Assembly: GCA_020062205.1 (NCBI GenBank) | Contig: JAGUWT010000230.1 | Coordinates: 1 to 42,751, forward strand | DNA length: 42,751 nt | Direction of reading: 5' to 3' | Source of the DNA: Thermodesulfovibrionales bacterium | GTDB taxonomy: Bacteria > Nitrospirota > Thermodesulfovibrionia > Thermodesulfovibrionales > SM23-35 | Shown here: piece after piece, positions 9,930-40,732 of the stretch | Numbering within the stretch: the stretch's first letter is position 1 | Layout: each line of letters starts with the position of its first letter | The notes under the pieces: model-generated | Databases searched by the model: none | What the model was told of the DNA's origin: nothing | What the model saw: only the letters and a program-made list of their open reading frames with translations | Position numbers and translations under genes: made by a program

Positions 9930-11386
9930 TGGATATTTCCGAATTTCAAGAGTTATTTTCGGCATTGACCGGGATTAAGAAAAACCGGTTCCACCCACTC
10001 GTATGGATAAACGGCGAGCCTGAAATCGGCGGAAATGTTTATATAGGGGGGATGTCTGAGGTGAATACAAAGGGTGCAAGTGTGGTCATCGGAGATAACT
10101 GCGACATTGCATCATTTGTCGCCATTAATTGTGCTGATACACATAAAAAATGCATTGGACTGTCGGATAAAGCAGACTGCAGGGACATAGTGCTCGAAAA
10201 CAATGTCTTTGTCGGGTCGCACAGCGTTATTAAAGGCGGGGCATACATTGGCCATCATTCAGTCATTGCGGCGGGTACGATTGTTGACGGCGTAAGAATA
10301 CCTCCATACTCTTTGGTTGCAGGAAACCCGATGCAGGTAAAAGAAGGATATTATCTAAAGCAGGCTTCTGGTATAATTCAGCATAATAAACCAACGTTAG
10401 GCGCAGAGGAAGAAAGGGCTGCTCAAAGAATAATCCGTTCGGGCTGGTTAGCACAGGGAAAGGAAGTGGAAGCATTTGAAAATGAATTTTGTAGTTCTAT
10501 TGGCTTGCCAGAAGGACACGCGGTAGCCGTTACAAACGGGACATCATCATTATTTCTTGCCCTCTGGGCACTAAAAGCACAAGGCAAAAAAGTCGCTTTT
10601 CCTGTTTATACATGCTCGAGCCTGCAGCATGCGGTAGCCATGGCCGGGGCAAAAGAGATTCTTGTGGATATTGATGGAAGGACTCCTAATATTGATCTCG
10701 AGTCGCTTGGTCAAAGTAAAGCTGATATCGCAATCGTGCCTCATATGTTTGGTTTGCCTTTGGATATATCAGATTTTAAAGGTGTAGATATAATCGAAGA
10801 TTGTGCTCAGGCACTGGGTGCATCTGTTAACAATATCCCTGTAGGATTACACGGCAAGATGGGGATATATTCTTTTTATGCCACAAAATTAATGACGAGC
10901 GGCGGACAGGGCGGTATGGTTGTATCTACGGATAAGGCTTTAGTTGATGCTATCAGGGATTACAGGGAATTTGATCAGCGGAGAGATAATATGAAAAGGT
11001 TTAACTTCCAGATGACTGATATGCAGGCTGCAGTCGGCCGCGTTCAACTTAAGAAGCTAACTGATTTTCTGAAGCGCAGGAGTGAGATATTCGAGTCTTA
11101 TCGTGAGAGCGGGCTATCCCTGCTGGATGTATCTGAAAATAATTTATCTCCGGTCCGTTTCCGAGCTGTACTATTGACTGAGCGGCCTAAAGAAGTTATT
11201 CAGGCACTGTCAAATGCAGGAATCAAGGCAATTATACCTATCGAAGATTGGGAACTTCTGGGTGAAAAAGAACTATTTCCTAATTCTTACAACATGACCC
11301 AACGGACTGTCTCGCTTCCAGTATATCCATCGCTCATAGATTACGATGTTAAAAAGGTTATTACTGTGGTGAAGAGTAGTATATGA
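9929..11386 (+). CDS. Fusion: hexapeptide-repeat (left-handed beta-helix) acyltransferase + DegT/DnrJ/EryC1/StrS aminotransferase
   Basis: aa 1-~143 hexapeptide repeats (IGGNVY, IGDNCD, LENNVF, IGHHSV, IAAGTI, VAGNP). From about aa 149: HNKPTLG, NGTSSL, IEDCAQALG, SFYATKLMTSGGQGG, FNFQMTDMQAA, SLPVYP. Confidence 0.85.
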   Translation: MDISEFQELFSALTGIKKNRFHPLVWINGEPEIGGNVYIGGMSEVNTKGASVVIGDNCDIASFVAINCADTHKKCIGLSDKADCRDIVLENNVFVGSHSVIKGGAYIGHHSVIAAGTIVDGVRIPPYSLVAGNPMQVKEGYYLKQASGIIQHNKPTLGAEEERAAQRIIRSGWLAQGKEVEAFENEFCSSIGLPEGHAVAVTNGTSSLFLALWALKAQGKKVAFPVYTCSSLQHAVAMAGAKEILVDIDGRTPNIDLESLGQSKADIAIVPHMFGLPLDISDFKGVDIIEDCAQALGASVNNIPVGLHGKMGIYSFYATKLMTSGGQGGMVVSTDKALVDAIRDYREFDQRRDNMKRFNFQMTDMQAAVGRVQLKKLTDFLKRRSEIFESYRESGLSLLDVSENNLSPVRFRAVLLTERPKEVIQALSNAGIKAIIPIEDWELLGEKELFPNSYNMTQRTVSLPVYPSLIDYDVKKVITVVKSSI

Positions 11387-12111
11387 TACTGACCGCGCAT
11401 CAGCCTGTTTATCTACCCTGGCTTGGCCTGTTCCATAAGATTTCCTTAGCGGATAAATTTTGTTTTTTTGATGATGTCCAATATCAACCGAAAGATTGGA
11501 ATAACAGGAATAAAATAAAATTCAATAACGGTACATCAGGCTGGCTAACAGTCCCTGTGCTCAGGAAATCATATCTTGAACGTTCGTATCTTGAGATTGA
11601 AATAAATAATCAACTGCCATGGCAGCGGAAACACTGGAAGTCCATAGAATTAAACTACCGGGAGGCTTCCTATTTCGGGTTGTATGAAAAGGAGTTGAAG
11701 AAATTTTATGAAGTGAAATGGCAGTTTCTTTCTGAGCTAAACTACGAGATGCTTCTGTTTTTCTTAGAAAAGCTAAATATTTCTATACTGGTAGTTAGGA
11801 TGAAAGACTATGACTTTAAGGGTCATAAGTCCGAGCTTGTTCTGGATATGTGCAGGCAGTTAGGGGCGGATATTTATATCTTCGGTGAAAAGGGAAAGGA
11901 CTATGCGGATGTAGAGGGGTTTCATGCTGCAGGCATCACACCTCTGTTTCAGGATTACCGTCACCCTACCTATCCTCAAATGCACGGTGAATTTATCCCT
12001 TATCTCTCAATCATTGACTTGCTTTTTAATTGCGGCTCTGAAAGTCTATCTATACTTACGGCGAATAACCTTCGCAGGAGTGATTTATTTGAGCATTCAA
12101 TCAAGCTTTGA
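11383..12111 (+). CDS. WbqC-family protein (putative aminoacyl/acyl transferase onto amino sugar)
   Basis: AHQPVYLPWLGLFHKI, DDVQY, WNNRNKI, WLTVPV, YPQ, LSIIDLLFN. Confidence 0.9.
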   Translation: MILTAHQPVYLPWLGLFHKISLADKFCFFDDVQYQPKDWNNRNKIKFNNGTSGWLTVPVLRKSYLERSYLEIEINNQLPWQRKHWKSIELNYREASYFGLYEKELKKFYEVKWQFLSELNYEMLLFFLEKLNISILVVRMKDYDFKGHKSELVLDMCRQLGADIYIFGEKGKDYADVEGFHAAGITPLFQDYRHPTYPQMHGEFIPYLSIIDLLFNCGSESLSILTANNLRRSDLFEHSIKL

Positions 12112-12784
12112 CAGAAAGTGGGAGGAAAATGTTTATAGTCAGGGTAAGCAATTAAACAGATACCCTTTTTCTGATTTAGTCTCCTATGTTATGAGACTCT
12201 ATGCAGAACGGCTCAGGTCTGGAGAGGCATTAAGGGCATTGGAATTAGGTTTTGGCGGAGGAAATAATATTGTTTTTTTGGCTACCGAGGGGTTTGAGAC
12301 CTGGGGGATTGAAGGTTCCCCTTCCGCACATGCATTTGCGAGTGCTCGGATGAAGGAAAAAAGGATTAATACCGAATTGACTGTCGGCGATTTTGTCAGA
12401 TTGCCTTACGATAATGAATTTTTTGATCTCGTTATTGACCGGGAGGCTGTTTATTGCAACATGCCTTCTGCAATTAAAAAAATAATTCGGGAGGTTGTTC
12501 GAGTTTTAAAAAAAGGAGGTCGTTTTTTGACTTTCATGTATTCACTTGAGCATGGAAGCAGGCTTTCCGATGGTGGAAAGCTTATAGACGTAAACACTTA
12601 CAACGATTTTGTGCAGGGCAATTTTGCTGGCACAGGAATAACACATTTTTTTTCGGAAAAGGAAATTCTCAATTACCTTAAGGATTTCGAGATAGAATTT
12701 ATGAAACATCTTCGTGTAGATAGTCTTATCCCATACAAAAGAAATGAGTATGCAGAATATCACACGTGCGCACGTAAAAGATAA
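12089..12784 (+). CDS. Class I SAM-dependent methyltransferase (start reassigned to TTG 12089)
   Basis: LELGFGGGNN motif I, GIEGS, LPYDNEFFDLVID, RVLKKGG. AGGAG at 12076-12080 precedes in-frame TTG 12089, which removes most of the overlap with wbqC implied by the 11924 start. Confidence 0.85.
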   Translation: MSIQSSFDRKWEENVYSQGKQLNRYPFSDLVSYVMRLYAERLRSGEALRALELGFGGGNNIVFLATEGFETWGIEGSPSAHAFASARMKEKRINTELTVGDFVRLPYDNEFFDLVIDREAVYCNMPSAIKKIIREVVRVLKKGGRFLTFMYSLEHGSRLSDGGKLIDVNTYNDFVQGNFAGTGITHFFSEKEILNYLKDFEIEFMKHLRVDSLIPYKRNEYAEYHTCARKR

Positions 12785-12800
12785 AAAATAGGAGGGGATA

Positions 12801-13553
12801 TTGAATCCTGTTATTTCAAGGACTGAAAAAGAGAAAGACTACCGTGCCAAGATGGAGAGGTTTTTCATGGATGCAAGTGGCACCATATCCGATAAGCTTA
12901 GTAATTTTGCAAGGTTCGTTAGCAGGCAGGACATAGCGCTTTTTCTTTTTAAATACGAGTTATACAAGAGGATACTCGAGGTTCACGGCTCCATCCTTGA
13001 ATTCGGGGTGTATCGTGGCGGTGGAAGCTTTACCTTTGCCCAGTTAAGCGCTATCCTTGAGCCTTACAATTACCAGAGGAGGATAATAGGTTTTGACACT
13101 TTTGAGGGTTTCCCCTCTGTCTCAGAAAATGACCTTCTTTCAGACCCCAACCTGAGCCCCAAGAAAGGAGATTTTTACACCTCAGAAAATTTCTACGAAG
13201 AATTGAGTGAGAATATCAAACTTTTTGACATGAACCGTTTCCTGAACCATATTGAAAAGATATCATTCGTAAAGGGCGATATAAACAAGACGCTCCCGGA
13301 CTTCCTCGAAAAAAACAGGCACATTGTAGTATCACTGGCGTATTTTGACCTTGACATCTATCAGCCTACGAAAAAGGCGCTTGAACTCATATTTCACAGA
13401 ATCCCAAAAGGCGGAATTATTGCTTTTGACGAATTGAACAACCCGCTTTGGCCCGGAGAGACACAGGCAGTAATAGAGACGATTGGAATTAATAATATCC
13501 GTTTGCAGAAATTTACCTTTGAACCCTGCAGGAGTTACTGCGTAATCGAATAA
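12801..13553 (+). CDS. TylF/MycF/NovP-family sugar O-methyltransferase
   Basis: GSILEFGVYRG, GFDTFEGFP, VKGDI, YFDLDIYQPT, GGIIAFDE. TTG start with GGAGGGG SD. Confidence 0.82.
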   Translation: MNPVISRTEKEKDYRAKMERFFMDASGTISDKLSNFARFVSRQDIALFLFKYELYKRILEVHGSILEFGVYRGGGSFTFAQLSAILEPYNYQRRIIGFDTFEGFPSVSENDLLSDPNLSPKKGDFYTSENFYEELSENIKLFDMNRFLNHIEKISFVKGDINKTLPDFLEKNRHIVVSLAYFDLDIYQPTKKALELIFHRIPKGGIIAFDELNNPLWPGETQAVIETIGINNIRLQKFTFEPCRSYCVIE

Positions 13554-13554
13554 A

Positions 13555-14259
13555 ATGGAGAAGGCAAATAGAAAAAGTTCAATCTTAGTTGTGGCAGCAC
13601 ATCCCGATGACGAAATCCTTGGATGTGGGGGGACCATGGCTCTTCACTCCATGAAAGGTGATGAGGTATATGTGCTTATCTTAGGGGAGGGAGTAACTTC
13701 AAGGGATGTAAAGAGGGACAGAAAGAAGAGGGATAAGGAAATTAAGGAATTAAGAAGGGATATAGAAGCGGCTAATAAAATAGTGGGGACTAAGAGGACT
13801 TTTTTATATGACTTCCCTGACAACAGGTTCGACAGCGTGCCTTTGCTTGATATTATTAAAGTAATTGAAAAAGTAAAAAATGAAGTAATACCAGATATTG
13901 TCTATACCCACCACCACGGCGATTTAAATATTGACCACCGGCTAACATTCCATGCAGTCCTAACAGCTTGCAGACCGTTAAAAGGGGAATCTGTAAAGGA
14001 AATCTATTCCTTTGAAGTGCCTTCTTCAACCGAATGGTCGCCAGATAACAGCAAATATTTCATGCCGAATTATTTTGTAAATATTAAAGATACATTTCAG
14101 GAAAAAATAAAAGCTATGAAAGCTTATACGAGCGAGATTCGCGATTTTCCACATCCACGCTCTGCAAGGGCTTTAGAAATTTTGGCTTGTAATAGAGGAA
14201 TAAGTGTTGGTCTTGAGTATGCAGAGGCGTTTGAAGTGATACGGCAAGTACGCGGTTAA
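13555..14259 (+). CDS. PIG-L/LmbE family N-deacetylase
   Basis: VAAHPDDEILGCGG, FPDNRFD, YTHHHGDLNIDH, FEVPSSTEW, FPHPRS, AEAF. Confidence 0.9.
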   Translation: MEKANRKSSILVVAAHPDDEILGCGGTMALHSMKGDEVYVLILGEGVTSRDVKRDRKKRDKEIKELRRDIEAANKIVGTKRTFLYDFPDNRFDSVPLLDIIKVIEKVKNEVIPDIVYTHHHGDLNIDHRLTFHAVLTACRPLKGESVKEIYSFEVPSSTEWSPDNSKYFMPNYFVNIKDTFQEKIKAMKAYTSEIRDFPHPRSARALEILACNRGISVGLEYAEAFEVIRQVRG

Positions 14260-14285
14260 AGCCAACTCTAAATTTAGATCAGAAA

Positions 14286-14870
14286 ATGAATGACAAAGTA
14301 TCTAAGAAAATTTTTTCAAGCAAGGCTTTTTTGGTAGGAAAAAGATTATATTTAAGACCATTGCTAAAATCTGACATAACGAAAAGATATTTATCCTGGC
14401 TCAATGATGCGGAGGTAACGAGATATATTGAAACTGGATTATTTCCTGTTACAGAAAAAGACCTCGAAGAGTTCTATAAAAAAATAAGGGTTAGTAAAAC
14501 GGATATTATGTTTGCTATTATTGACAAAAAGCATGATTTGCACATCGGCAATATAAAATTGGGGGGTATTAAATGGGTGCACCGCTTTGCTGATTTAGGG
14601 ATTATGATTGGTGATAAAGCGTACTGGGGGAGAGGTTATGGAGAAGAAGCATGCAGATTATTACTTGGATATGCCTTTAACAGGTTAAATTTAAATAAGG
14701 TTACGTTGGGTTCTTATGCAACCAATTTAGCAGCGTTGAAAACCTATAAAAAAGTTGGTTTTAAAATTGAAGGTAGGATAAAGAAGTTGTTGAGTATTGA
14801 TGGGAAATATGTTGACCATGTTCTGATGGGAATTCTGCAGAGTGAATACAATAAAAAAGCCTTTAAATAA
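14286..14870 (+). CDS. GNAT (RimJ/RimL-type) N-acyltransferase, candidate for the PseH step
   Basis: LYLRPL, YLSWLND, HIGNIKLG, GIMIGDKAYWGRGYG (acyl-CoA motif A), NLAALKTYKKVGF. Confidence 0.82.
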   Translation: MNDKVSKKIFSSKAFLVGKRLYLRPLLKSDITKRYLSWLNDAEVTRYIETGLFPVTEKDLEEFYKKIRVSKTDIMFAIIDKKHDLHIGNIKLGGIKWVHRFADLGIMIGDKAYWGRGYGEEACRLLLGYAFNRLNLNKVTLGSYATNLAALKTYKKVGFKIEGRIKKLLSIDGKYVDHVLMGILQSEYNKKAFK

Positions 14871-14891
14871 AACAGTAACAGGAGATATTCT

Positions 14892-16223
14892 TTGGACCAC
14901 AATGCTGTAATGTCCTTCATGCGGCGGCATTATCTTAAAAATAGAACCATAGTTTCTAAAGATATTACGGGAATCATTGAAGATGTAGCTACATACATTG
15001 GCATTGAACCAGTATTGCACCGCTATCCAACAGGAAACGAGTATTCTACATGGGATATCCCACCTCGATGGGATGTGCGTGAGGCATGGCTTAAAGACGA
15101 AGATGGCAATATTATTGCAAGCTATGAAGATCACCCCCTTTTTCTTGCCCCGTATTCGATACCTTTCCATGGAGTTGTGACGTTTGAAGGTTTAAAGGAT
15201 CATGTCAGCACCCATCCGACGCTTCGAGATGCCTTTTTCTATGAGCATAGGCTTGCCTACAACTCGCGATTAAGACTTAAGGACTGGAGAATAAGTCTGC
15301 CGGCCGATCTTCTCGACCGACTTAATCCAATGGGTAGGTACGAGGTGTGTATTGATGTTGAAGTTGAGCCGGGTGAGATGCTTGTTGCCGAGTTTGTGCT
15401 ACCGGGCAAAAGCGAGGATGTAGTAGCCCTGCTTGCTGACTATTGCCATCCCGGACAAGTCAACGATAGCTTTTCAGGAATCGTGACGTTCATGGATGTC
15501 CTCAAAGAATTAAAGGAAAGACCGTCACGGAACTTCACATACAGTCTGATGCTTTTCCCAGAGACTATCGGGTCATCAGTCATGCTTGCTTCAAATCCTG
15601 AACGTATTCCAAAAATTAAAGGTGCTATTTTTTGTGAGATGGTCGCATGGGGTGCTCAATGGGCAATAAAAAAAACGTTCACCGGCGATACGTACATGGA
15701 TATGCTGGCTGGCGTCCTCTGCCTCGAAATGCCTGAGATCAAAACAATAAGCTTTGACGATGGAGCCGGAAATGATGAAATAGTATTTGACTGGGCTGGA
15801 ATTCCTGCAATATCGCTTCAACGATATCCTTACGAAGAATATCACTCAAGCGAAGACAGCCCCGAAAAGATCGATATGGAAAGCATGAAGCGCGCCATTG
15901 AAATCATTCTTAAAATGATAGATGTTATCGAAAACGACCGTATCTGGTGCTGCGTGCACCCAGTTCCTTTTTATATGTCGCGGTTTGATCTTTATAATGA
16001 TGCTGTTTCTGTCTGGCAAGACCACTTGTTCTTCCGCAACATTCTCTTCAATCTGAACGGGTACAAAAGTATTCTTGAGATAGCGAATAAACTCGGAAGA
16101 CAATTCGATAAAACACTAGGAATAATAAAGGCAATGGAAAAATATGGATTGGTAAGATCAGGTGAATTGGGATTAATAGTCGCGTCAAGAAAGCAGAGAT
16201 ATAGGCGGCTTAAAAAAGCATAA
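14892..16223 (+). CDS. DUF4910-type aminopeptidase-like protein (M28-like domain with DUF2172 insert and C-terminal winged helix)
   Basis: YPTG...WDIPPRWDVREAWL, PYSIPF, YEVCID, LPGKSE, YCHPGQVNDSFSG, PETIGS, YPYEEYHSSED, C-terminal LNGYKSILEIA wHTH. GGAG SD plus TTG start. Confidence 0.8.
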   Translation: MDHNAVMSFMRRHYLKNRTIVSKDITGIIEDVATYIGIEPVLHRYPTGNEYSTWDIPPRWDVREAWLKDEDGNIIASYEDHPLFLAPYSIPFHGVVTFEGLKDHVSTHPTLRDAFFYEHRLAYNSRLRLKDWRISLPADLLDRLNPMGRYEVCIDVEVEPGEMLVAEFVLPGKSEDVVALLADYCHPGQVNDSFSGIVTFMDVLKELKERPSRNFTYSLMLFPETIGSSVMLASNPERIPKIKGAIFCEMVAWGAQWAIKKTFTGDTYMDMLAGVLCLEMPEIKTISFDDGAGNDEIVFDWAGIPAISLQRYPYEEYHSSEDSPEKIDMESMKRAIEIILKMIDVIENDRIWCCVHPVPFYMSRFDLYNDAVSVWQDHLFFRNILFNLNGYKSILEIANKLGRQFDKTLGIIKAMEKYGLVRSGELGLIVASRKQRYRRLKKA

Positions 16224-16245
16224 TCAGTTATTTAAGGAGTTGAAG

Positions 16246-17754
16246 ATGAAAGTTTTAGGCATATCAGGAAGTTTAAGAAATTTACGCTTTGGAAAAGGAT
16301 CCGATTTATTAGTTTCAGAAATAAAAAAAATTGCTACAAAAGATAACCTTCTTGAGTATTTAAAAGAACAAGGGAACTTATGTTTAAGTTTATTTATAGA
16401 ATCAGGCAGAAAAATGGGAAAACCTTTCAATCAGTTATATGAGAAGTTAAAAAAAACTGGCGGCAATTACGGGTTAAGCAACAGTGAGATTGCCCTTGCT
16501 ACGGGGCTATGGGGTGTAAACCAAAATGGGGTAGACATTGAACATGTAAGCTTGACCGAATTTTTAGAGAGGAATCAAAACAAAACCGTTGGACGCGAAC
16601 AAATTTTACAAAGAGTACAAGAAGCAGATGGCATTTTGGTTTCTGGACCTGTTTATTTTGGTGACCGCAGTTCACTGATTTATGATTTCCTGCGGTTGCT
16701 CAAGTTGGAGCCACAGATTGTAAAAAACAAGGTTTATGCCGGAATTGCTGTTGGAGCTAAGCGGAATGGCGGACAGGAAACAACACTTATTTATCAGATG
16801 ATGGATTTTATTAATATTGGCATGATTGCTGTAGGAAACGATTTGAATACGACAGCCCAGTACGGCGGGACAGGAGTTGCAGGTGATGTCGGTACTATGG
16901 CAAATGATAGCATTGGATTAGAAACTGCTATTGGCACAGGTAATCGTATAGGGGATGTGGTCAATCTAATATCCACTGCTGGAAAATTACATCTAAAGGA
17001 TAAGCCTCGCATAGGTGTATTTATACTACAAGATTGTGAAGAAACCGCCTTGAGAAAAATAAAAAATGTGGTGGAAAAGTATGAGATTTTCAATAAAGCC
17101 GATTTTAAATTTTTTCATTTACCAAAAGAAAAGATAAATAGATGTATAGCCTGCGATAATTGTCCAGCCTTTATTGACGATGACGAAGTTTATAACTGCA
17201 TCAATCAGAGAAAAGATGACCTTTTCAAAAAAATCCATAAGGAAATAATCGGCCTTGATGGAATACTTCTAGGCGGATACTCTACAAATGACTTTACCAA
17301 AATTTATTCTGTATACCAAACGTTTATTGAGAGAACCCGTTACTTAAGAAGAAGTGACTATCAATTTTCAAACCTCTTGGTAGCGCCTTTAGTTGTGGAA
17401 GAAGTTACAAGTCGGGAAAATCTAAGCATACGTATCATAACCTCGATGATACGTCATCATACTATTATGTTTAGGCCTTTAGTTTTGCAGCTAAAAGATG
17501 GTCAGGAGATCACAGAAAATTTATTCGTTGCTGATTTGTGCTCATACATAGAACTTGCTGGTTCAATTACGGCTGGAAGAATATTAAAATATGCAAGTAA
17601 GTTGGTCAAAAAGACGTATAATCCGTATGGTTATACTCTTAGATCAAGCAGGGACATGGAACAGTCCACTATCGAAAAAAAGCAGAAGGTTATGGAAAAT
17701 CGAAAGCACCGGTTTGAAGCGATGTTAGAAAAAAGAGTTGAGGGACACCAATGA
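16246..17754 (+). CDS. Tandem-domain flavodoxin-fold protein of the iron-sulfur flavoprotein / NAD(P)H:FMN reductase family
   Basis: Domain 1: VLGISGSLR, ADGILVSGPVYFG, VGAKRNGGQETTL, YGGTG. Domain 2: INRCIACDNC...YNC, DGILLG, FIERT. AAGGAG at 16234-16239 favours ATG 16246. Confidence 0.75.
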   Translation: MKVLGISGSLRNLRFGKGSDLLVSEIKKIATKDNLLEYLKEQGNLCLSLFIESGRKMGKPFNQLYEKLKKTGGNYGLSNSEIALATGLWGVNQNGVDIEHVSLTEFLERNQNKTVGREQILQRVQEADGILVSGPVYFGDRSSLIYDFLRLLKLEPQIVKNKVYAGIAVGAKRNGGQETTLIYQMMDFINIGMIAVGNDLNTTAQYGGTGVAGDVGTMANDSIGLETAIGTGNRIGDVVNLISTAGKLHLKDKPRIGVFILQDCEETALRKIKNVVEKYEIFNKADFKFFHLPKEKINRCIACDNCPAFIDDDEVYNCINQRKDDLFKKIHKEIIGLDGILLGGYSTNDFTKIYSVYQTFIERTRYLRRSDYQFSNLLVAPLVVEEVTSRENLSIRIITSMIRHHTIMFRPLVLQLKDGQEITENLFVADLCSYIELAGSITAGRILKYASKLVKKTYNPYGYTLRSSRDMEQSTIEKKQKVMENRKHRFEAMLEKRVEGHQ

Positions 17755-19292
17755 AGAAGCATTTCCAAAATAACGCATTATATTCCGATCCATTATCGTA
17801 CTCAACTGTTTCTGCTTTTTTAATTAGCCGCTGTAAAACGGGTGGGGATAGTGTCTTTTTAAAAGAAGTTTCAACCAATCAAAGTGTAACTTACGATGAA
17901 TTTTGGAATTTAGTATGCCAAGTTTCAAACTGGTTTGAAATCAATGCTATTGAAACTGGCGATACTATATGTTTAGCCTTAGAAAATGATATCCAGTCGG
18001 TAGCTCTCTTTTTCGCATCTCTATGCAAATCCATCATTCCAGCAGTCGTTAATAAGAATATTTCAAAACAAGAATTAAATTATATAATAGAACTGATCAA
18101 TCCGAAGAAAATTGTTAACTTCTCCATAGACTTAGTAGATAAAAGGTTCGTTTCTTTTGATTTTTCTATGATAAAAATTTTTTACATCAAAAATGTGGAG
18201 CATAGATCTGCAGGAAATGCTAATGATATTGCTTATATTACCTTTACATCCGGATCAACGGGTGTTCCCAGAGGCGTTTGTATATCAAACCGTAACGTCT
18301 TATCGGAAATCAGCAGTTTTATTCAGGCATATTGTTTGGAAAAGTCGGATGTCCATCTATGCGTACTTCCTGTTAGTCACGCGTCAGCTCTATATAGGAA
18401 CCTATTCCTTCCTTTTTCATTAGGTAGCAAGGTTGTAATGACCAGTAAGTTCGACGTCAAAGAATTTTGGCAAATTATCGAAGATAAGGAGGTGACCTTT
18501 GTTCAAGTCGTTCCCTCAATACTTTCTTCACTTCTTGTGTCGGATACCACACCAGGGAAATCCACAAAAGAGCGATTGCGATTTATCGGCAGCGCATCAG
18601 CACCCCACCCAGAAAGTCTTATAAGAAAGTTTGAGGAAAGATTCGGGATATCTATTCTTCAGGGTTACGGAATGACCGAAGCTACCTGTGGAATCACATT
18701 GTCACCGATAGAGAGGGAATTACGGATCTCTGGTAGTGTTGGACGGCCAATTCCAGGAAATAGGGTTGAGATCTGGGACGAGGATGGCAGGTGTCTTCCC
18801 CCTCATGAAATAGGTGAAGTGGTAGTTCAGGGTAAAAACATAATGATGGGTTATGTTGACCAGAATTTAAACTCAAACATAAAGTTAAGAGATGGTCGGC
18901 TGTGCACAGGAGATTTGGGTTATCTTGATGAAAATAACAATTTATTTCTTATTGGGAGAAAGAATGATATCATCAAAAGGGCTGGACATAGGGTCTCACC
19001 TAAGGAGATCGAAAATGCGCTTTACTTTCTGGAGGAAATCAGGGACGCAAAGGTTTTGGGAATACCCCATGACTTTCTGGGTGAAGATATCATAGCGTTC
19101 GTAACGCTTAACGATAGTTATTCCATAAGTGGAAGGAAGATTATCTCAAAGTTGAAAGGTCAAATTTCCTCACACAAACTTCCTTCTGAGATTTGTGTCC
19201 TTACTGATATCCCGAGAAATTCCGTTGGTAAAATTGACAGTCACTTCTTGTTCGATTGGTATGAAAAGTACTGCGCAAAAAAACGATTTTAA
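17751..19292 (+). CDS. Class I adenylate-forming enzyme (acyl-AMP / acyl-CoA or acyl-ACP ligase)
   Basis: YITFTSGSTGVPRG, LPVSH, QGYGMTE, SVGRP, TGDLG, GRKNDII, SPKEIE, PRNSVGK (catalytic Lys). Confidence 0.92.
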   Translation: MKKHFQNNALYSDPLSYSTVSAFLISRCKTGGDSVFLKEVSTNQSVTYDEFWNLVCQVSNWFEINAIETGDTICLALENDIQSVALFFASLCKSIIPAVVNKNISKQELNYIIELINPKKIVNFSIDLVDKRFVSFDFSMIKIFYIKNVEHRSAGNANDIAYITFTSGSTGVPRGVCISNRNVLSEISSFIQAYCLEKSDVHLCVLPVSHASALYRNLFLPFSLGSKVVMTSKFDVKEFWQIIEDKEVTFVQVVPSILSSLLVSDTTPGKSTKERLRFIGSASAPHPESLIRKFEERFGISILQGYGMTEATCGITLSPIERELRISGSVGRPIPGNRVEIWDEDGRCLPPHEIGEVVVQGKNIMMGYVDQNLNSNIKLRDGRLCTGDLGYLDENNNLFLIGRKNDIIKRAGHRVSPKEIENALYFLEEIRDAKVLGIPHDFLGEDIIAFVTLNDSYSISGRKIISKLKGQISSHKLPSEICVLTDIPRNSVGKIDSHFLFDWYEKYCAKKRF

Positions 19293-19381
19293 GGGAATCC
19301 CAAGGGCTTAAATAAAAAAGTACTCATTGAGAAGATAACATTTATAAGTAGTCAATTAAAATAATCAAGTAGGGGATATAA

Positions 19382-19648
19382 TTGGATAGAGCGGTGATTT
19401 ATGAGAAACTGGAGGAAATTTTTTCGGATATTTTTGACCTTGGGGATATAGGCTTTAAGGAAGACCTCTCTGCCGGTTTTATAAAAGATTGGGACTCTCT
19501 TGGTCATGTCAGATTAATGATAGCGATTGAGAGTGAGTTTGATATACGATTCTCTTTAGAAGAATTTGCCAAATTGGTCACTGTCAAAAAAATACTGGGT
19601 TATCTTGTGGATATCCTGGGAAATAGCTATAAAGACAGTCTTGTATAA
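19382..19648 (+). CDS. Acyl carrier protein
   Basis: Small acidic protein with WDSLGHVRLMIAIESEF phosphopantetheine-site motif. AGGGG SD plus TTG start. Confidence 0.9.
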   Translation: MDRAVIYEKLEEIFSDIFDLGDIGFKEDLSAGFIKDWDSLGHVRLMIAIESEFDIRFSLEEFAKLVTVKKILGYLVDILGNSYKDSLV

Positions 19649-19649
19649 A

Positions 19650-20525
19650 ATGGATGATGAATTCAGGTACTTGCTGAGTTTGTTTGAAAGGTTTTCTATA
19701 AAACCGATAACAAAGAGCGAATTTGTTGAGAAATTAATCGAGGTGGGTGTTGAAAAAAGCGATATTTTGTATATACATAGTCAGTTATTTCTTCTGGGCA
19801 ACGTAGAAGGCGCTAGTAGTCTCGACGAATATTTGAATAAGATTTTAGAATGTTTCTTTGAAGTCATTACTTCTGAGGGCACTATAGTTGTGCCTACATT
19901 TACTACGAGAGTAATAAAGCAGGGAATACCCTTTATTCTCGAGGAAACGGAATCTGATACTGGATTATTTGCCGAATTTATTAGGAAACATCCTGACTCG
20001 GTGAGAAGCCTTCATCCAGTAAACTCGTTTTCTGCTATCGGTAGGAGAAAGTATGAGATATGCAGCGATGTGCCCCAGACCAATTATGGTCTTGATACTC
20101 CTATGGATAGAATGGCTAAGTTGGGAGCGAAGGGTGTACTATTGGGCATGGAACTGACCGGAGATGCTGCTTATACAATCTCGTTGCTTCACCACATTGA
20201 AGCCATGTATAATGTGCCATATGTTTACAACAAAATAATAGATGCGAAAGTTATTGCTGGAGGAAAGTGTATCGATAAAATTTTTATCGGGAATTTCCGT
20301 TATCTGGACTTTGATATTCAAATGGGAACAATGCGGACAAATTTTATTCATAGACATTTAATCGAAGGAGGCCTGATAAGATCGGCCTACTTTGATAAAA
20401 GGGGCATTTATGTTGTGAATTTTAGTGACTATATAAACGAGTGTGTAAGTCTGTTGAAGAAAGATATATATAGTTTACTTGACTATCCTCCCTCATTTGT
20501 CAGGGGTGTTATACCATACAAATAA
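19650..20525 (+). CDS. AAC(3)/YokD-family (Antibiotic_NAT) N-acyltransferase (start reassigned to ATG 19650)
   Basis: GVEKSDILYIHS, GTIVVPTFT, TGLFAEFIR, RSLHPVNSFSAIG, LLG, SLLHHIEA. ATG 19650 lies just after the ACP stop. Confidence 0.85.
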   Translation: MDDEFRYLLSLFERFSIKPITKSEFVEKLIEVGVEKSDILYIHSQLFLLGNVEGASSLDEYLNKILECFFEVITSEGTIVVPTFTTRVIKQGIPFILEETESDTGLFAEFIRKHPDSVRSLHPVNSFSAIGRRKYEICSDVPQTNYGLDTPMDRMAKLGAKGVLLGMELTGDAAYTISLLHHIEAMYNVPYVYNKIIDAKVIAGGKCIDKIFIGNFRYLDFDIQMGTMRTNFIHRHLIEGGLIRSAYFDKRGIYVVNFSDYINECVSLLKKDIYSLLDYPPSFVRGVIPYK

Positions 20526-20577
20526 GCTCATGATTCTTGCTCTTTTACGCCTTTTAAGGATTCAGATATAAACTAAC

Positions 20578-22635
20578 ATGGTTCTGGACAGTAATTTTAA
20601 GTATTTTTTATGTAAGGTCGTTAAGCTCAAATGCGTTGTGAGTCTGGTGTTCCGTGAGGTGGTGCTTAGAAGGAACAAGGTCATGCTATGTTATTTAACC
20701 CCAAACAAAATCACATCTGTCTTGGAAAAACTTATCTGGCTGTTGAGTAAATTTCAGAAAAAGCTCTCTCTTAAGTATCTCTACTGTAATGTCTCCGGAA
20801 TGAAAAATGATGCTGGAGTTTCGCTTGTAAAGGTATCATATTTTGACGAGCTGTATGACGTAATAAATAATCTGAACGGTATGATACACAAAGAAGGCGA
20901 TTCGATATTAGATTATTTAAGTAGGAGGATGGAGCCCATTAAGGAGGACTTAAAGCTTTATATTATGCAGCAGGTAGCGTTTGATATCTATGACGATTTA
21001 TTATCAGTTAATGTTGCAAGTTGGTTATCCACAAACAAGGAAAGCGAGTTGTACGGGAAGAACCCAGTTTTAATACTAGAAAATAAAAGTTATTGGAGTT
21101 ATTTAGTTTTTGACCATGCAAAAAGTAAGAATGTGGAGATTATCGTTTTTCGCCAGATGAACATGAAAAGAAATAAGGGAATTCGCTTCGTATATTATTT
21201 AGTAAAATTGATTTCTGAATTTGTGAGACGGCTTTTCACAGGCAAGAAAAAGACTGCTCTCTCTGAAGAGGTGGATATTGGAATTCCATTTTATGCAGTT
21301 CATAATTTTACCAATTTTTTTGACCAAAAAAATTATTATCTATTTTGGTTTTATCAATCAGGAATTGACCCAAAAAACATATTGATTTATGTTCCAGATG
21401 CTGAATTTAAAATCAGCGATGAAGAGGTGCTTAACATAAAAAAGGCTGGATTTAACCTTTTATTCTGTCCGACCAGGATAACTGGGAAAGCTAAAAACAA
21501 CGTTCCTGTTTATGTATGTTCATTCAAAATGGCGCAACTTCTGCTTTTCTATTTAAGGCAGATTGTAAAGATGTATTTTCGTGTTAGAGGCAGGCCTATG
21601 AAGGAGCAGTGGAAGCTCCTTTCCCTATTGTTTATCCAACTTCCATACTGGGAGGACTTTTTCCAGAGCAATAATGTAAAGATTAAGTTCAGGTTTCATG
21701 ACATATTCGGCATACGTGATATTGCTGCGAAGCTGTCAGGCGTAATAACCATGTCTTATCACTATTCGAACCATTCTGCATCGACTATTATGCATCAGGA
21801 AGTTTGTGATATTTTTTATATTTGGGGGAGAAGATATAAAAGATTTTTACTGCCGAAATATTCGACCACAAAAAATATAATTCAAACCGGATACGTCTTC
21901 GATTATTCCTTCGGTCACTTAAAGCAAAAGGCATTAGAAGTAAAAAAGGCTTTTGCTGGGCGGAATATTCAGTATGTTATAGGGGTACTGGACGAACATT
22001 TAAAAGGAAATCCCGGGAATGCGATATTGGACTGTTATGAGGCTGTATTCAGATACGCTATGTCGCACAGCGAAATCGGTATTATTATAAAGCCCAAGAA
22101 AGTAACTCTTCGTGAGGATATGTTATCAAAACCGGAAGTTCTTGATCTGCTTGAACTGCTTGAAAAGGAAGGCAGGTTGATTATACTGGATTATAGAAAA
22201 TATCCTATTGAGGCCGGGTATGCCTCTGATATCGTTATAGGGTTGGTTGCAAACTCAACTGCAGCATTGGAGTGCGCGATTGCAGGTATCCCGACAATTG
22301 TTTATGATTGCGCTGGCTCTAGAGATTGGTGTCCATATTATGAATGGGGATATAATAAGGTAGTTTTTGATGATATTAAACAACTAATTGACTCGTTAAA
22401 TACAAACAGAGAAATATTGGATAATGTGTCTGGTTTTGCAGACTGGTCGTTCATTCTTAATGAAGTAGACCCCTTCCGTGACGGCAAGGCAAACCAGAGG
22501 ATTGCAGGCTATATCAAGACACTTCTCCTTGCGTCAAGTAATGGCTTAAGTAAAGATGAGGTCATTGAGGCTGCAAACCGGGCTTATGCAGAAGAATACG
22601 GCTGGGATAAGGTGACATCTTTGCACAGAAAATAA
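20578..22635 (+). CDS. Large uncharacterised polysaccharide-locus protein, probable GT-B fold ulosonate glycosyltransferase (start uncertain)
   Basis: C-half has GT-B-like features: YHYSN, FYIWG, TGYVFD, IIKPKK, ANSTAALECAIAGIPTIVYD, terminal DPFRDGKANQRI. Adjacent to wzx. Confidence 0.55.
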   Translation: MVLDSNFKYFLCKVVKLKCVVSLVFREVVLRRNKVMLCYLTPNKITSVLEKLIWLLSKFQKKLSLKYLYCNVSGMKNDAGVSLVKVSYFDELYDVINNLNGMIHKEGDSILDYLSRRMEPIKEDLKLYIMQQVAFDIYDDLLSVNVASWLSTNKESELYGKNPVLILENKSYWSYLVFDHAKSKNVEIIVFRQMNMKRNKGIRFVYYLVKLISEFVRRLFTGKKKTALSEEVDIGIPFYAVHNFTNFFDQKNYYLFWFYQSGIDPKNILIYVPDAEFKISDEEVLNIKKAGFNLLFCPTRITGKAKNNVPVYVCSFKMAQLLLFYLRQIVKMYFRVRGRPMKEQWKLLSLLFIQLPYWEDFFQSNNVKIKFRFHDIFGIRDIAAKLSGVITMSYHYSNHSASTIMHQEVCDIFYIWGRRYKRFLLPKYSTTKNIIQTGYVFDYSFGHLKQKALEVKKAFAGRNIQYVIGVLDEHLKGNPGNAILDCYEAVFRYAMSHSEIGIIIKPKKVTLREDMLSKPEVLDLLELLEKEGRLIILDYRKYPIEAGYASDIVIGLVANSTAALECAIAGIPTIVYDCAGSRDWCPYYEWGYNKVVFDDIKQLIDSLNTNREILDNVSGFADWSFILNEVDPFRDGKANQRIAGYIKTLLLASSNGLSKDEVIEAANRAYAEEYGWDKVTSLHRK

Positions 22636-22647
22636 GTATCATTAAAA

Positions 22648-24126
22648 ATGACAAGCAAAGAACAACAGGTAAAAAACAGTTTCATTTACATGCTTCCTCT
22701 CCTTGTAAGCGGCATTTTTCCATTTGTGGCAATGCCGATTCTTACAAGGATACTTACCGCGGAGGATTACGGCATACTTGCTCTGGCTCAGATATACGCT
22801 ATACTCGTAAGCGGATTCGCCAACTTCGGTATGAGTGCATCTTATGACAGAAATTTTTTCAAATATAGAAGTGACAAATTAAAATCGGCGCAATTACTAT
22901 TTTCCACCCTCTTTTTCGTAGTATTGAATTTTATCTTCCTCGCATCACTTACTTTCTTCTTTCGTAATACGTTTGCGAGACTCATTGTTGGCGATGCTCA
23001 ATACGGTAATATACTTTTTGTAGCGTTGTGCGCACAATTTTCGAGCACAGTGTCATATTATTACTATTCCTATTTTAAAAATTCGGAGCTTGCAAAAAAA
23101 TTTACTGCTTATACAATTGCCCAGAATATTATAAATGTTATCCTGTCTCTTTTTATGGTTGCTTATCTAAAGACAGGTGTTATAGGAATATTTTATGCCC
23201 AATTATTGTCCGGTTTAATCATCTTCTCTGCCCAAAGCTATAAGTTTTTGATTATGCTTAAGCCCTCATTGGATAAATCTATTCTACTTGAATCTATTAA
23301 GATAAGTTATCCACTTACCCCGACAATTTTTTTCGGCGTCATAGGAACACAGTTTGACAAGTACATGATAGGCATGCTGGCATCGCTTGGCGGGGTGGGG
23401 ATTTACAGCATCGGGCAGAAGGTGGCGTCAGTAGCCTTTACCTATATGACAGCCATTCAAAACGTATTTTCACCGCAGGTATACACAAGGATGTTTGATC
23501 TGAAGGAAAAGGGTGGCGAATCCGTGGGCAGATACCTGACTCCGTTTGTTTATATTTCTACAGCTTTTACATTAATTATTGCTGTTTTCTCGGAAGAGAT
23601 AATCTCTATACTCACTCCTGTTTCCTACCACGGAGCGATTGATATCGTTACAGTTCTCGCCATGTATTATGGGTTCCTTTTTTTCGGAAAGATATCCCCG
23701 ATGCAGTTGATATATGCAAAAAAAACACATTTATGTACAGTACTTTCCACCGTTAGTATAGGCTTTAACATAGTATTAAATATTATTTTCATCATGAAAT
23801 GGGGGGCAATTGGAGCAGCATGGGGCACCTTCCTGGCAGCGGTGATTTCTGGTTCGATATATTTTATGGTCGCTCAAAAAAACTATTTAATAAAATGGGA
23901 ATATTTAAAAATTGGCACCATCTTTTTAGTATTTTTCTCATCAGCGATGCTAATGATTGTTTTAAGAGATTTCAATACTGATTATGTAACACGACTGATA
24001 CTCAAGGGTATTTCTATCGGCACTTATGTATATTTGGGCATTAAATTTGATGTGATCACAATGGATAATTATAGGCTGATAAGAAATGCGATACCTATAA
24101 AACAGAAGGGTTATATTACAAGTTAG
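22648..24126 (+). CDS. wzx: Wzx oligosaccharide flippase (MOP/PST family)
   Basis: Many hydrophobic segments, PILTRILTAEDYGI, FDKYMIG...VGIYSIGQK, WGAIGAAW. Confidence 0.9.
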   Translation: MTSKEQQVKNSFIYMLPLLVSGIFPFVAMPILTRILTAEDYGILALAQIYAILVSGFANFGMSASYDRNFFKYRSDKLKSAQLLFSTLFFVVLNFIFLASLTFFFRNTFARLIVGDAQYGNILFVALCAQFSSTVSYYYYSYFKNSELAKKFTAYTIAQNIINVILSLFMVAYLKTGVIGIFYAQLLSGLIIFSAQSYKFLIMLKPSLDKSILLESIKISYPLTPTIFFGVIGTQFDKYMIGMLASLGGVGIYSIGQKVASVAFTYMTAIQNVFSPQVYTRMFDLKEKGGESVGRYLTPFVYISTAFTLIIAVFSEEIISILTPVSYHGAIDIVTVLAMYYGFLFFGKISPMQLIYAKKTHLCTVLSTVSIGFNIVLNIIFIMKWGAIGAAWGTFLAAVISGSIYFMVAQKNYLIKWEYLKIGTIFLVFFSSAMLMIVLRDFNTDYVTRLILKGISIGTYVYLGIKFDVITMDNYRLIRNAIPIKQKGYITS

Positions 24127-24163: not shown

Positions 24164-25216
24164 ATGATTAAAATCGGCTTAAATGGATTTGGAAGGATCG
24201 GCAGGGCTATTACAAGGATAGTATTAAAAAGTGTGGATTGCCAACTAAATGTGATTAATGAGCTGGATCCAGACATTGGCAATGCTACATATTTATTAAA
24301 TTATGATTCTATATACGGTCGTTTTTCAGAAAAGATATCAGCTGATGAGCAGAGAAATGCCCTTATTTGTAACGGCGGGGTTATTCCAGTATATTCGTTT
24401 GCCAACACCGAGCATGTTCCGTGGGAAAGACATGATATTGATGTCCTGATTGACGCTACGGGGGTGAAGGCGAATGTCCTGGCAGCCCATCGCTTGATAG
24501 AGAGAGGAATCCCAAAGATCGTTATAACTCATTCCCCTGACGAGGTTGATACAACGATTATTTTAGGTGTTAATGAAAATGAGTATGACCCCAAAAAGCA
24601 TCACGTAATAAGTAGCAGTATCTGCGATGCAAGTGCGATCGCTCCAGTATTGTTTGAGATAAACAAGCTGTGGGAGATAGAGAATTGCTTTGTGACAACA
24701 CTGCATCCTTGGTTATCTTATCAAAATTTATTGGATGGTTCGGTCAGTTCTGTTTCCAGTCCGGGTCATTATTGGAAAGACTATTCTCTTGGACGAAGCA
24801 GCATCATGAACCTTATTCCAAAAGACACGACAGCTGCAAAAGCAACCCTTAAAGTCCTTACAGAATTGAAGGGGAAGATAGATGCAATTTCCTTCAGGGT
24901 TCCGACAAGTATTGTTTCAGCCTCAGACATGACAATCTTAGTAAAAAACAAGACGTCTACCGAAGAGGTAAATTCACATTTTAAGAGATTGTCAGAGGAG
25001 AAGGAGGATATCTTTGAACTGATCGAGGAATGTCTGGTTTCTATAGACCACCAGGGTACCAATAAGTCAGCTATTATAGATGCAGTGCGCACTAAGGTTT
25101 TGAACGAAAGGATGATAAAGATGGTAGTCTGGTATGACAACGAGTGGGGATATAGCAATAAAGTTGTCGATATTGCAAGATTGATAACTAAAAAATCAGG
25201 AGATAATCATGGGTAA
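24164..25216 (+). CDS. Divergent type I GAPDH/Epd-family aldehyde dehydrogenase
   Basis: GLNGFGRIGR, YDSIYGRF, DATG, LGVNE, TTLH, FRVPT, WYDNEWGYS. Catalytic loop reads SSSICDASAIAP instead of SNASCTTNCLAP. AAGGAG SD. Confidence 0.88.
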   Translation: MIKIGLNGFGRIGRAITRIVLKSVDCQLNVINELDPDIGNATYLLNYDSIYGRFSEKISADEQRNALICNGGVIPVYSFANTEHVPWERHDIDVLIDATGVKANVLAAHRLIERGIPKIVITHSPDEVDTTIILGVNENEYDPKKHHVISSSICDASAIAPVLFEINKLWEIENCFVTTLHPWLSYQNLLDGSVSSVSSPGHYWKDYSLGRSSIMNLIPKDTTAAKATLKVLTELKGKIDAISFRVPTSIVSASDMTILVKNKTSTEEVNSHFKRLSEEKEDIFELIEECLVSIDHQGTNKSAIIDAVRTKVLNERMIKMVVWYDNEWGYSNKVVDIARLITKKSGDNHG

Positions 25217-29424: not shown

Positions 29425-29426
29425 CG

Positions 29427-40342: not shown

Positions 40343-40732
40343 ATGGATGTCCTTGGTTTTGTCTTTGCTACTTTTGTAGTAAAATTGTCAGTTAATATCG
40401 GCATATTTCTTTGCCTTGTTATGTTTCTCTGCACATTTTATGCAGATGCAATAGTCACTATCTTTTACAGATGGAGAAGGGGAGAAAATCTAATAAAGGC
40501 ACACAGGAGTCACCTATATCAATATATGAGTAATGATCTGGGAATGCCCCATTGGATAGTATCGCTGTTGTATGCTTTAAGCCAGTTCGTCTTTGGCTTT
40601 CTGGCGTTATTAGCATACAGGAAAGGATTAGTATGGCAATTTATGGTCTTTTTAGGATTCGGAATCATGTTTCTGTTCACCTATAAGGTTGTTAAAAATA
40701 TAAAACCGAAATATCTGCTGGATAAAAAATGA
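40343..40732 (+). pseudogene. C-terminal fragment of a WecA/WbpL (MraY-family) polyprenol-phosphate HexNAc-1-P transferase
   Basis: LGFVFA...DAIVTIFYR..RGENLIKAHRSHLYQ is the C-terminal loop of this family. The N-terminal two-thirds, including the DD and FMGD motifs, is missing. Confidence 0.75.

Follow-up and report, generated by a model that had tools for sequence, protein, structure and literature searches.

Nonulosonic acids and the N-acyl groups they carry shape how phages, the immune system and lectins recognize bacterial surfaces. Knowledge of the nonulosonic-acid-modifying enzymes that install non-acetyl groups is scarce (Friedrich 2017). The logic of carrier-dependent decoration is known already from the Dlt system and from butirosin and, by genomics, from the loci of Campylobacter jejuni Cj1295 and Clostridium acetobutylicum CA_C2195. 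Here we set these systems beside a five-gene cassette at positions 14892-20525 of a 42,751-nucleotide (nt) contig of a Thermodesulfovibrionales bacterium (JAGUWT010000230.1, assembly GCA_020062205.1; the whole stretch is called the window), which encodes a DUF4910 protein, a flavoprotein, an ANL-superfamily ligase, an acyl carrier protein (ACP) and an N-acyltransferase with the AAC(3) fold. The cassette differs from them in its loader, an ANL ligase together with a putative iron-sulfur (Fe-S) flavoprotein, and in tying the Antibiotic_NAT fold explicitly to carriers.

In C. jejuni NCTC 11168 the DUF4910-family gene Cj1295 lies beside an N-acetyltransferase gene (Cj1296/7) in the pseudaminic-acid locus, and it is genetically required for the glycoform with a non-acetyl N5 acyl group, 2,3-di-O-methylglyceroyl-pseudaminic acid (Pse), of 389-390 Da (Hitchen 2010). 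Cj1295 was hypothesized there to cleave the 5-acetamido group and so let another acyl be installed. The preliminary description of the window had cited this precedent with AAC(3)-like, ACP and FkbH-like neighbors; the available text of Hitchen (2010) confirms it in part, bearing out the role of Cj1295 and listing Cj1296/7 as an N-acetyltransferase. A 2026 survey of C. jejuni, in the text available, still places cj1295 among 'putative transferases'. The window differs in having an ANL ligase and an Fe-S flavoprotein and no FabH/FkbH-type loader. Loaders of that type are presumably present in the Cj1295 region. The second precedent, CA_C2195 (PDB 3k9t), belongs to the same DUF4910/DUF2172 family, and its zinc ligands are kept in the window protein; NeuB, a cytidylyltransferase, an 'aminosugar N-acetyltransferase' and an ACP lie in its neighborhood, and transacylation or deacylation was proposed (Das 2014). 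In contrast to the window, an ATP-grasp ligase and a fusion of acetyltransferase and HAD are present there, Table 2 of the paper gives neither a flavoprotein nor an ANL ligase, and function was proposed from context only (Das 2014, available text).

Two further systems share the chemistry in part. In Dlt (DltA ligase, DltC carrier, DltB MBOAT), as would be the case here, an ANL ligase loads a small carrier and a transferase decorates a cell-surface polymer; however, none of the 39 window open reading frames (ORFs) scanned encodes an MBOAT (DltB-like) transferase, the window transferase being instead a soluble AAC(3)-fold protein that presumably acts on a cytoplasmic amine, and the window ligase lacks the Asp at position A4. 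In butirosin biosynthesis (carrier BtrI, transacylase BtrH) an acid on a stand-alone carrier ends as an amide on an amino sugar, but BtrH is papain-like and loading is by ATP-grasp (PMC7183216), whereas the window has an Antibiotic_NAT fold and an ANL loader.

The five genes are intact, co-directional and tightly packed within a 42-kb pseudaminic-acid-type polysaccharide operon. They lie where the preliminary description had placed them, apart from two start codons corrected below, and each of the five proteins exceeds the Pfam cut-off of its own family:

14892-16223, + strand: DUF4910/DUF2172 M28-like zinc protein of the CA_C2195/Cj1295 family (Pfam DUF4910 134.7, DUF2172 53.5, Peptidase_M28 27.4 bits)

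16246-17754, + strand: tandem flavodoxin-fold (WrbA/FMN_red-like) protein with a CxxCxxC...C motif (Pfam FMN_red 51.5 bits)

17751-19292, + strand: ANL-superfamily acyl-AMP-forming ligase (Pfam AMP-binding 233.7, AMP-binding_C 41.1 bits)

19382-19648, + strand: ACP of 88 amino acids (aa), Ser39 in DWDSLGH (Pfam PP-binding 22.1 bits, cut-off 20.8)

19650-20525, + strand (frame from 19566): AAC(3)-fold (Antibiotic_NAT, PF02522) N-acyltransferase (Pfam 90.4 bits, cut-off 25)

Intergenic spacings across the set are 16, -4 (an ATGA overlap), 89 and 1 nt. For the flavoprotein the likelier start codon is ATG 16246, which is preceded by AAGGAG and agrees with the 502-aa database gene call; TTG at 16240 is an alternative start. 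We corrected the start of the AAC(3)-fold gene to ATG 19650, which leaves 1 nt after the carrier stop codon. A Pfam scan found no FkbH-like, FabH or KAS III loader in the window, as first described, and the flavoprotein gene does overlap the ligase gene, by 4 bases.

We consider it somewhat better than an even chance that the cassette serves to exchange the N-acyl group of a pseudaminic-acid-type nonulosonic acid, or of its amino-sugar precursor, with the flavoprotein acting off the carrier. The ligase would adenylate a carboxylic acid other than an alpha-amino acid and thioesterify it onto the phosphopantetheine arm of the 88-aa carrier, from which the AAC(3)-fold enzyme, through its His/Glu pair, would move the acyl group to a sugar amine. 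That amine would have been freed beforehand from its N-acetyl group by the DUF4910 protein, by a PIG-L deacetylase encoded upstream, or by both, and the Fe-S flavoprotein, off the carrier, would most likely make or redox-tailor the free acid before activation. Assignment of these proteins to one pathway draws on the families to which they belong, on the conservation of residues for catalysis and cofactor binding, on synteny that recurs between loci and on natural fusions.

The fusions are the strongest evidence here for placing ligase, carrier, AAC(3)-fold transferase and DUF4910 in one pathway. An exhaustive search with an AAC(3) profile returned 7429 representatives at E <= 0.001, 985 of them at E <= 1e-30, and 17 proteins were scanned for fused domains: 16 picked among the 150 best as clearly too long for a single domain, plus P0131 (325 aa). 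Pfam detects PP-binding with AAC(3) in P0196 and P0248, and a carrier profile built for this analysis detects an N-terminal carrier domain with AAC(3) in P0209 and P0230. The whole activation and transfer set of AMP-binding, carrier (WDSL motif) and AAC(3) domains is joined in P0222 (901 aa) and P0235 (922 aa), and the ligase portion of P0235 shares 34% identity with the window ligase across 335 residues. P0123 (694 aa) joins AAC(3), DUF4910 and HTH_47, and P0231 (812 aa) joins AAC(3), DUF4910 and an ACPS-type phosphopantetheinyl transferase; because such AAC(3)+DUF4910 fusions exist, we argue that DUF4910 acts on the same substrate as the transferase. Other members carry a MaoC dehydratase (P0234) or a methyltransferase (P0194, P0215, P0250, P0269, P0122) fused to AAC(3). 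As compact single-protein versions of the pathway, P0231, P0222 and P0235 could suit biochemistry.

Gene neighborhoods point the same way. A metagenome scan with a four-protein AAC(3) alignment gave 109 relatives, of which 80 loci were kept; ORFs were called crudely, as the longest non-overlapping frames, and labeled with profiles built for this analysis; the ORF calling re-found the AAC(3) gene in 75 of the 80. Counted as loci rather than independent lineages, and with near-duplicate contigs kept (e.g. L083/L084, L085/L086, L149/L151), a carrier lies within 3 kb in 33/75 and is directly adjacent in 21/75, DUF4910 lies within 4 kb in 24/75, a ligase is present in 17/75 and NeuB lies within 7 kb in 19/75. 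Among the loci well flanked on both sides (>=3 kb) the figures are 15/25 for the carrier, 14/25 for DUF4910, 6/25 for the ligase and 13/25 for NeuB within 7 kb. The loader varies among sampled loci (ANL ligase, LuxE+LuxC, or FabH, by Pfam scans), FabH being present in the related loci L121 and L126, while the carrier/AAC(3) pair is constant. One sister AAC(3) locus, L138:156-8054, has LuxE/LuxC-type carrier loading, an AprA-like methyltransferase and a radical S-adenosylmethionine (SAM) gene, and suggests that quite different acyl groups are handled on a common transfer scaffold. This synteny with carrier and DUF4910, together with the natural fusions, upholds the initial description of the set as a carrier-protein cassette for glycan acylation.

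The AAC(3)-fold protein itself has the residues for such a transfer. Its nearest solved relatives in the PDB are YokD (E 1.7e-9) and FrbF (E 4.2e-7), and H181/E184 (LLHHIE) are invariant in an alignment of 53/53 subfamily sequences. In the Antibiotic_NAT fold the catalytic His and Glu lie in a TxFHFAE motif, in which F denotes a hydrophobic residue (Stogios 2022); H181/E184 correspond to this pair, with Ser rather than Thr at position -3. The fold and the His/Glu motif are thus common to the window protein, the AAC(3) resistance enzymes, FrbF and YokD, but the window protein scores far below the curated cut-offs of the resistance enzymes, and its family is linked, by fusion and synteny, to carriers and not to coenzyme A (CoA). 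That the gene is an aminoglycoside resistance gene caught in the operon by chance is hardly credible: a Pfam Antibiotic_NAT match and the conserved catalytic pair would be expected of one, but NCBIfam AAC_3 (NF033082) scores 76.5 bits against a curated cut-off of 270, all the resistance subtype models stay far short of their cut-offs (23-61 bits where 420-675 are required), YokD and FrbF are inactive on aminoglycosides (Stogios 2022), and the gene sits within an operon with no mobile-element context. We therefore rejected a resistance function on the AAC_3 score, as the preliminary description had anticipated.

When alignments of the AAC(3)-fold protein and the carrier were co-folded, the score was 0.40 against 0.01 for the best control, a pass that lends weak support; scores <=0.60 were given to only 18 of 157 solved complexes and to both of the mismatched pairs that passed. 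In this calibration the mark was reached by 116/157 solved complexes and 2/215 mismatched pairs, and in the AAC(3)-carrier runs contact agreement was >=98% and the partner pLDDT (predicted local distance difference test) >=78. If the proposed transfer is true, the large environmental branch of the fold (the 985 representatives at E <= 1e-30) would have a likely native function. This bears on the origin of resistance enzymes and on the over-calling of 'AAC(3)' as resistance in metagenomes. In the available text of Stogios (2022) the terms 'acyl carrier' and 'polysaccharide' have 0 occurrences each.

Upstream of the transferase, carrier and ligase have features that would suit the loading step. 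Ser39 of the carrier (DSL motif) is invariant in 32/32 aligned carriers of related loci, and two PF01648 phosphopantetheinyl-transferase matches lie on other contigs of the genome, so that the carrier can be activated in trans. The best NCBIfam match of the ligase is a fatty-acid-CoA ligase (318.4 bits), with other acyl-CoA ligases among the best matches, compared with 176.1 bits for the amino-acid adenylation model AA-adenyl-dom (TIGR01733; cut-off 317.4). Amino-acid-activating adenylation domains carry an Asp at A4 that binds the alpha-amino group. The window ligase has His at this position, and Asp is found there in 0/18 aligned ligases from flavoprotein loci. Because of this His and the sub-cut-off AA-adenyl-dom score, the substrate is probably not an alpha-amino acid, and on the same two grounds we rejected an amino-acid-activating module of the nonribosomal peptide synthetase (NRPS) type. 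The label 'NRPS-like' given at the outset thus holds for the logic of the set but fails for the ligase, which scores as an acyl-CoA ligase and not as an amino-acid adenylation domain.

The DUF4910 protein, into which a DUF2172 domain is inserted, aligns with CA_C2195 (3k9t) at E 6.3e-36 over residues 29-408. The zinc ligands of CA_C2195 are His189, Asp195 and His324 (Das 2014), and in the alignment to 3k9t these positions are kept as H186, D192 and H318. An unmasking role for the window protein would, by analogy, follow the published hypothesis of Hitchen (2010) for Cj1295. The PIG-L de-N-acetylase (13555-14259), two genes upstream of DUF4910, could rival it as the amine-freeing enzyme; it and the intervening gene are as follows:

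13555-14259, + strand: PIG-L/LmbE-type de-N-acetylase (Pfam PIG-L 90.2 bits; BshB1-like by NCBIfam, below cut-off), context gene

14286-14870, + strand: PseH-like GNAT N-acetyltransferase (Pfam Acetyltransf_3 91.4 bits; TIGR03585 PseH 48 bits, cut-off 93.1), context gene

The set also recurs as a whole. The combination of flavoprotein, ligase, carrier and AAC(3) is found in 3/80 genomic flavoprotein loci, more than chance, and a synteny search for the five-gene set, suggested as a check in the preliminary description, located it in L014, L161 and L121. In L014, a Rhodospirillales bin, the order is DUF4910 - flavoprotein - carrier - ligase - AAC(3) - GT28_C, beside a flagellin gene; L161, from a metagenome, has the same order and may be the same population. 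The order in L121, also from a metagenome, is NeuB - DUF4910 - AAC(3) - B12-radical-SAM - flavoprotein - ligase - carrier - B12-radical-SAM, and L001 is a shorter copy of it with an identical carrier sequence. L070 has a variant (NeuB ... flavoprotein - ligase - carrier - AAC(3)) with no DUF4910 in view. Two partial metagenome loci complete the picture: L099, with DUF4910, AAC(3) and flavoprotein before the contig ends, and L141, in which the flavoprotein is beside AAC(3) with a carrier further on and no ligase was found. At L014:14165-15748 (- strand) the five-gene set adjoins the flagellin gene, and the module would also serve flagellin glycosylation, beyond polysaccharides.

Several observations weigh against the acyl-exchange assignment. 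The window AAC(3) protein is divergent, at 27-29% identity to those of L001, L014 and L070, and the window ligase clusters with those of L001 and L069, apart from those of L014 and L070. Because ligase and AAC(3) are not closest to L014/L070, and because AAC(3)-type loci sit in two separate flavoprotein clades, the five-gene sets are mosaics, put together from modules on more than one occasion instead of being inherited as a unit. The DUF4910 score is 134.7 bits in the window compared with ~314 in relatives, and the C-terminal HTH_47 has no Pfam match, yet the 3k9t alignment extends to chain residue 419, inside the HTH_47 domain. Hydrolysis by DUF4910 is not assured, because the family is described as having no conventional peptidase active site (Das 2014, available text). 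The neighborhood counts include near-duplicates, the co-fold pass is of the weak kind, and we found no enzyme tests of any of these proteins in print in a search in which most subscription journals were not covered.

To these points is added the absence of a carrier within 3 kb in 10/25 well-flanked AAC(3) loci, 2 of which (L121 and L161) do have a carrier that is further off or was missed by ORF calling (L161 by its likeness to L014). Because carrier-less loci occur, some members of the AAC(3) family may use acyl-CoA. An AAC(3)-fold enzyme that is a plain acetyl-CoA-dependent sugar N-acetyltransferase, with ligase and carrier feeding another step, would account for these loci and would accord with acetyl-CoA being the donor for all characterized members of the fold (Stogios 2022, available text); such loci, moreover, do not have a GNAT acetyltransferase as their sole acetylation option. 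We nevertheless regard this as very unlikely for the window, in view of the carrier+AAC(3) and ligase+carrier+AAC(3) fusions, the direct adjacency of carrier and AAC(3) in 21 of the 75 loci and the 1-nt gap between the two genes here.

The step of the acyl-exchange scheme in which we depart from the preliminary description is the place of the flavoprotein. Among 1153 relatives from a word-based search, the 120 best are all 466-549 aa long, 42-73% identical and annotated only as 'NAD(P)H-dependent oxidoreductase' or 'multimeric flavodoxin WrbA'. When 28 diverse members are aligned, 78 columns are invariant and the mean column identity is 54%. Four cysteines in the second half of the protein, C302, C305, C308 and C320 (CX2CX2CX11C, 302-320), are invariant in 28/28, as are a PVYFGDR loop, GAKRNGGQET and ERTRY-RR. 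The AlphaFold model (pLDDT 87.3) has two flavodoxin-like halves, of which only the first aligns with WrbA, including the GGQETT loop. From these features the protein is a putative flavin mononucleotide (FMN) + [4Fe-4S] redox enzyme.

Comparison with solved proteins did not reveal a reaction: Foldseek against the PDB returned solely flavodoxin-like proteins (WrbA, PnpB, ArsH, SP1951), and searching PDB sequences with a profile brought up nothing but WrbA-type proteins at E ~1e-4. The ESM Atlas contained own-family clusters only, named 'flavodoxin family' or 'NAD(P)H-dependent oxidoreductase'. Fused forms of >=932 aa were not found, which is weak evidence. The alignment of the first half with WrbA and the compact four-cysteine motif recall the WrbA/Isf lineage. 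Isf is a single FMN_red domain of ~190 aa with a compact N-terminal Cys motif. The window flavoprotein differs in its length of ~500 aa, its tandem flavodoxin-like halves and the location of its Cys motif in the second half, and its family differs from both Isf and WrbA in always occurring in glycan loci. In the literature, most subscription journals not being covered, we came across no published function for this family, and among the papers listed by title and abstract none ties an FMN reductase, flavodoxin or iron-sulfur flavoprotein to nonulosonic, pseudaminic or legionaminic sugars.

The genomic context of this family is more informative. A scan of one genome per species gave 184 relatives, from which we kept 80 loci in at least 15 phylum-level groups by record titles; the neighbors were clustered, the clusters named by Pfam and the partners re-counted with profiles within 6 kb. 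Enolase-superfamily (MR_MLE_C) and/or ATP-grasp genes accompany the flavoprotein in 47/80 loci (one also with a ligase, one with an MBOAT gene), a Dlt-like set of ligase/carrier + MBOAT in 15/80, ligase/carrier + AAC(3) in 3/80 (L001, L014, L070) and ligase/carrier only in 2/80, and 13/80 have none of these partner sets within that distance. The partner types do not mix with respect to the carrier: a carrier lies within 6 kb in 0/47 ATP-grasp/enolase-type loci and, conversely, enolase-type and ATP-grasp genes are both absent from all 17 loci that have a carrier.

A quick maximum-likelihood tree of 81 flavoprotein sequences, with support from the Shimodaira-Hasegawa-like approximate likelihood-ratio test (SH-aLRT) only, contains three groups, and partner type follows the tree. 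A ligase/carrier clade (support 100) has 20 rows, of which 15 are MBOAT-type, 2 AAC(3)-type and 3 partnerless; a small clade (support 98) holds the window, L001, L077, L003 and L004; and the third group is the ATP-grasp/enolase majority. The flavoprotein is among the most conserved proteins in such glycan loci and more conserved than its partners, a constant part versus a variable attachment chemistry. Because this conserved family also serves carrier-less ATP-grasp/enolase loci, the flavoprotein probably works on one small molecule shared by these systems, for which the acid prior to its activation is the likeliest candidate, rather than on an intermediate attached to the carrier. A role before activation is supported by the relatives serving three attachment systems, ATP-grasp/enolase, ligase/carrier/MBOAT and ligase/carrier/AAC(3).

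These counts cast doubt on the earlier suggestion of redox tailoring on the ACP. In that scheme the acid is loaded on the carrier first and the flavoprotein then redox-tailors the carrier-bound acyl before transfer. It would be in keeping with the 4-base overlap of the flavoprotein gene and the ligase, with the position of the flavoprotein directly before ligase or carrier in L001, L014, L070 and L077, and with the small clade of the window, whose members with known partners have a ligase. We nevertheless judge it unlikely, since none of the 47 ATP-grasp/enolase-type loci has a carrier at hand and the high conservation of the family argues for one shared, carrier-independent substrate.

An alternative in which the flavoprotein has no substrate of its own concerns the radical SAM enzymes of these loci. 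Radical SAM enzymes require a flavodoxin-type reductant. The flavoprotein, with FMN and Fe-S, could be a dedicated electron donor for a B12-dependent radical SAM enzyme that methylates the acyl group or the sugar: two such genes flank the flavoprotein-ligase-carrier block in L001 and L121, L099 has the same start, and the window has one in the same operon:

3391-4752, + strand: B12-binding radical SAM enzyme (Pfam Radical_SAM 92.9, B12-binding 55.7 bits)

This gene, however, lies 11.5 kb upstream of the flavoprotein, a B12-radical-SAM gene is found within 6 kb in only 5/80 genomic flavoprotein loci, and the many invariant arginines of the second domain would suggest an anionic small-molecule substrate, so that we regard the electron-donor role as decidedly improbable.

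Returning to a flavoprotein that acts on the free acid, a wider proposal can be put forward tentatively, as a possibility rather than an expectation: the two-domain Fe-S flavoprotein might make one specific carboxylic acid, which at least 15 phylum-level groups might attach to surface glycans by three interchangeable routes. These would be an ATP-grasp amide with enolase-type epimerization, a Dlt-like ester formed via MBOAT, and carrier-to-amine transfer by the AAC(3)-fold enzyme. If true, this would amount to a widespread, undescribed glycan decoration, and the native role of the Antibiotic_NAT fold would be acyl transfer that depends on a carrier, with the resistance enzymes as possible descendants. 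By record titles, cultivable organisms with the flavoprotein, in which genetics could be done, include Marinomonas sp. MED121, Roseivirga sp. E12, Curvivirga aplysinae and Borborobacter arsenicus. For the cassette proper, ligase, carrier, AAC(3)-fold transferase and DUF4910 together with the fusions constitute a directly testable scheme.

Downstream of the cassette, positions 24164-30422 form a second activation module and encode a GAPDH-like protein, a GalE-like epimerase, a methyltransferase, a HAD phosphatase, an FAH-family protein, a second CTP_transf_3 cytidylyltransferase and a PGDH-like 2-hydroxyacid dehydrogenase. A related block of cytidylyltransferase, 2-hydroxyacid dehydrogenase, GFO oxidoreductase and methyltransferase follows AAC(3) in L093, L105, L110 and L116, in L110 also with HpcH-type aldolases. 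The window module may supply the acid or make a second cytidine-monophosphate-activated sugar acid, and its GAPDH-like, HAD and 2-hydroxyacid-dehydrogenase genes are a hint, by analogy with C. jejuni, of a glycerate-type acid.

The window is contig C289 of a 1.84-Mb genome bin of 303 contigs with 73.65% completeness. Every window ORF of >=100 aa with a family match is on the + strand, forming one long polysaccharide locus, and minus-strand genes were ruled out, no minus-strand ORF reaching a Pfam cut-off. Upstream of the five genes, all on the + strand, are a PseB-like dehydratase, DegT aminotransferases, a PseG-like GT28_C protein, NeuB, a CTP_transf_3 cytidylyltransferase and the PseH-like GNAT protein; after this pseudaminic-type set come methyltransferases, the PIG-L deacetylase, the five genes, two large Pfam-less proteins, Wzx, Wzy and glycosyltransferases. 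Promoter-like and terminator-like sites at 13400-22800 were not enriched over shuffles (25 versus 28.4 and 6 versus 6.3), by which comparison internal promoters or terminators in the cassette region were rejected, and a structured RNA in the 89-nt gap was discarded on an Rfam scan of 13000-23000 that found no families.

Some further genes of the locus merit mention. Two are fusions: 1191-3365 (724 aa) joins an RmlD-like reductase domain to a DegT aminotransferase, and 9929-11386 (485 aa) joins a hexapeptide acetyltransferase to a PseC-like DegT aminotransferase. A WbqC ORF (11383-12111) and a methyltransferase ORF (11924-12784) have 188 bases in common; since Pfam matches the latter only from residue 88 or later, its real start is probably further downstream. 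The two large proteins without Pfam matches, of 685 aa (20578-22635) and 664 aa (30439-32433), are candidate nonulosonic-acid transferases, and the second matches TIGR04326 and a BFO_1060-family glycosyltransferase model weakly, below cut-offs. Finally, a 107-aa ORF at 40729-41052, downstream of an intact Bac_transf gene at 37923-38516, matches the 179-position Bac_transf profile at positions 1-99 only; it is probably a duplicate that has been truncated.

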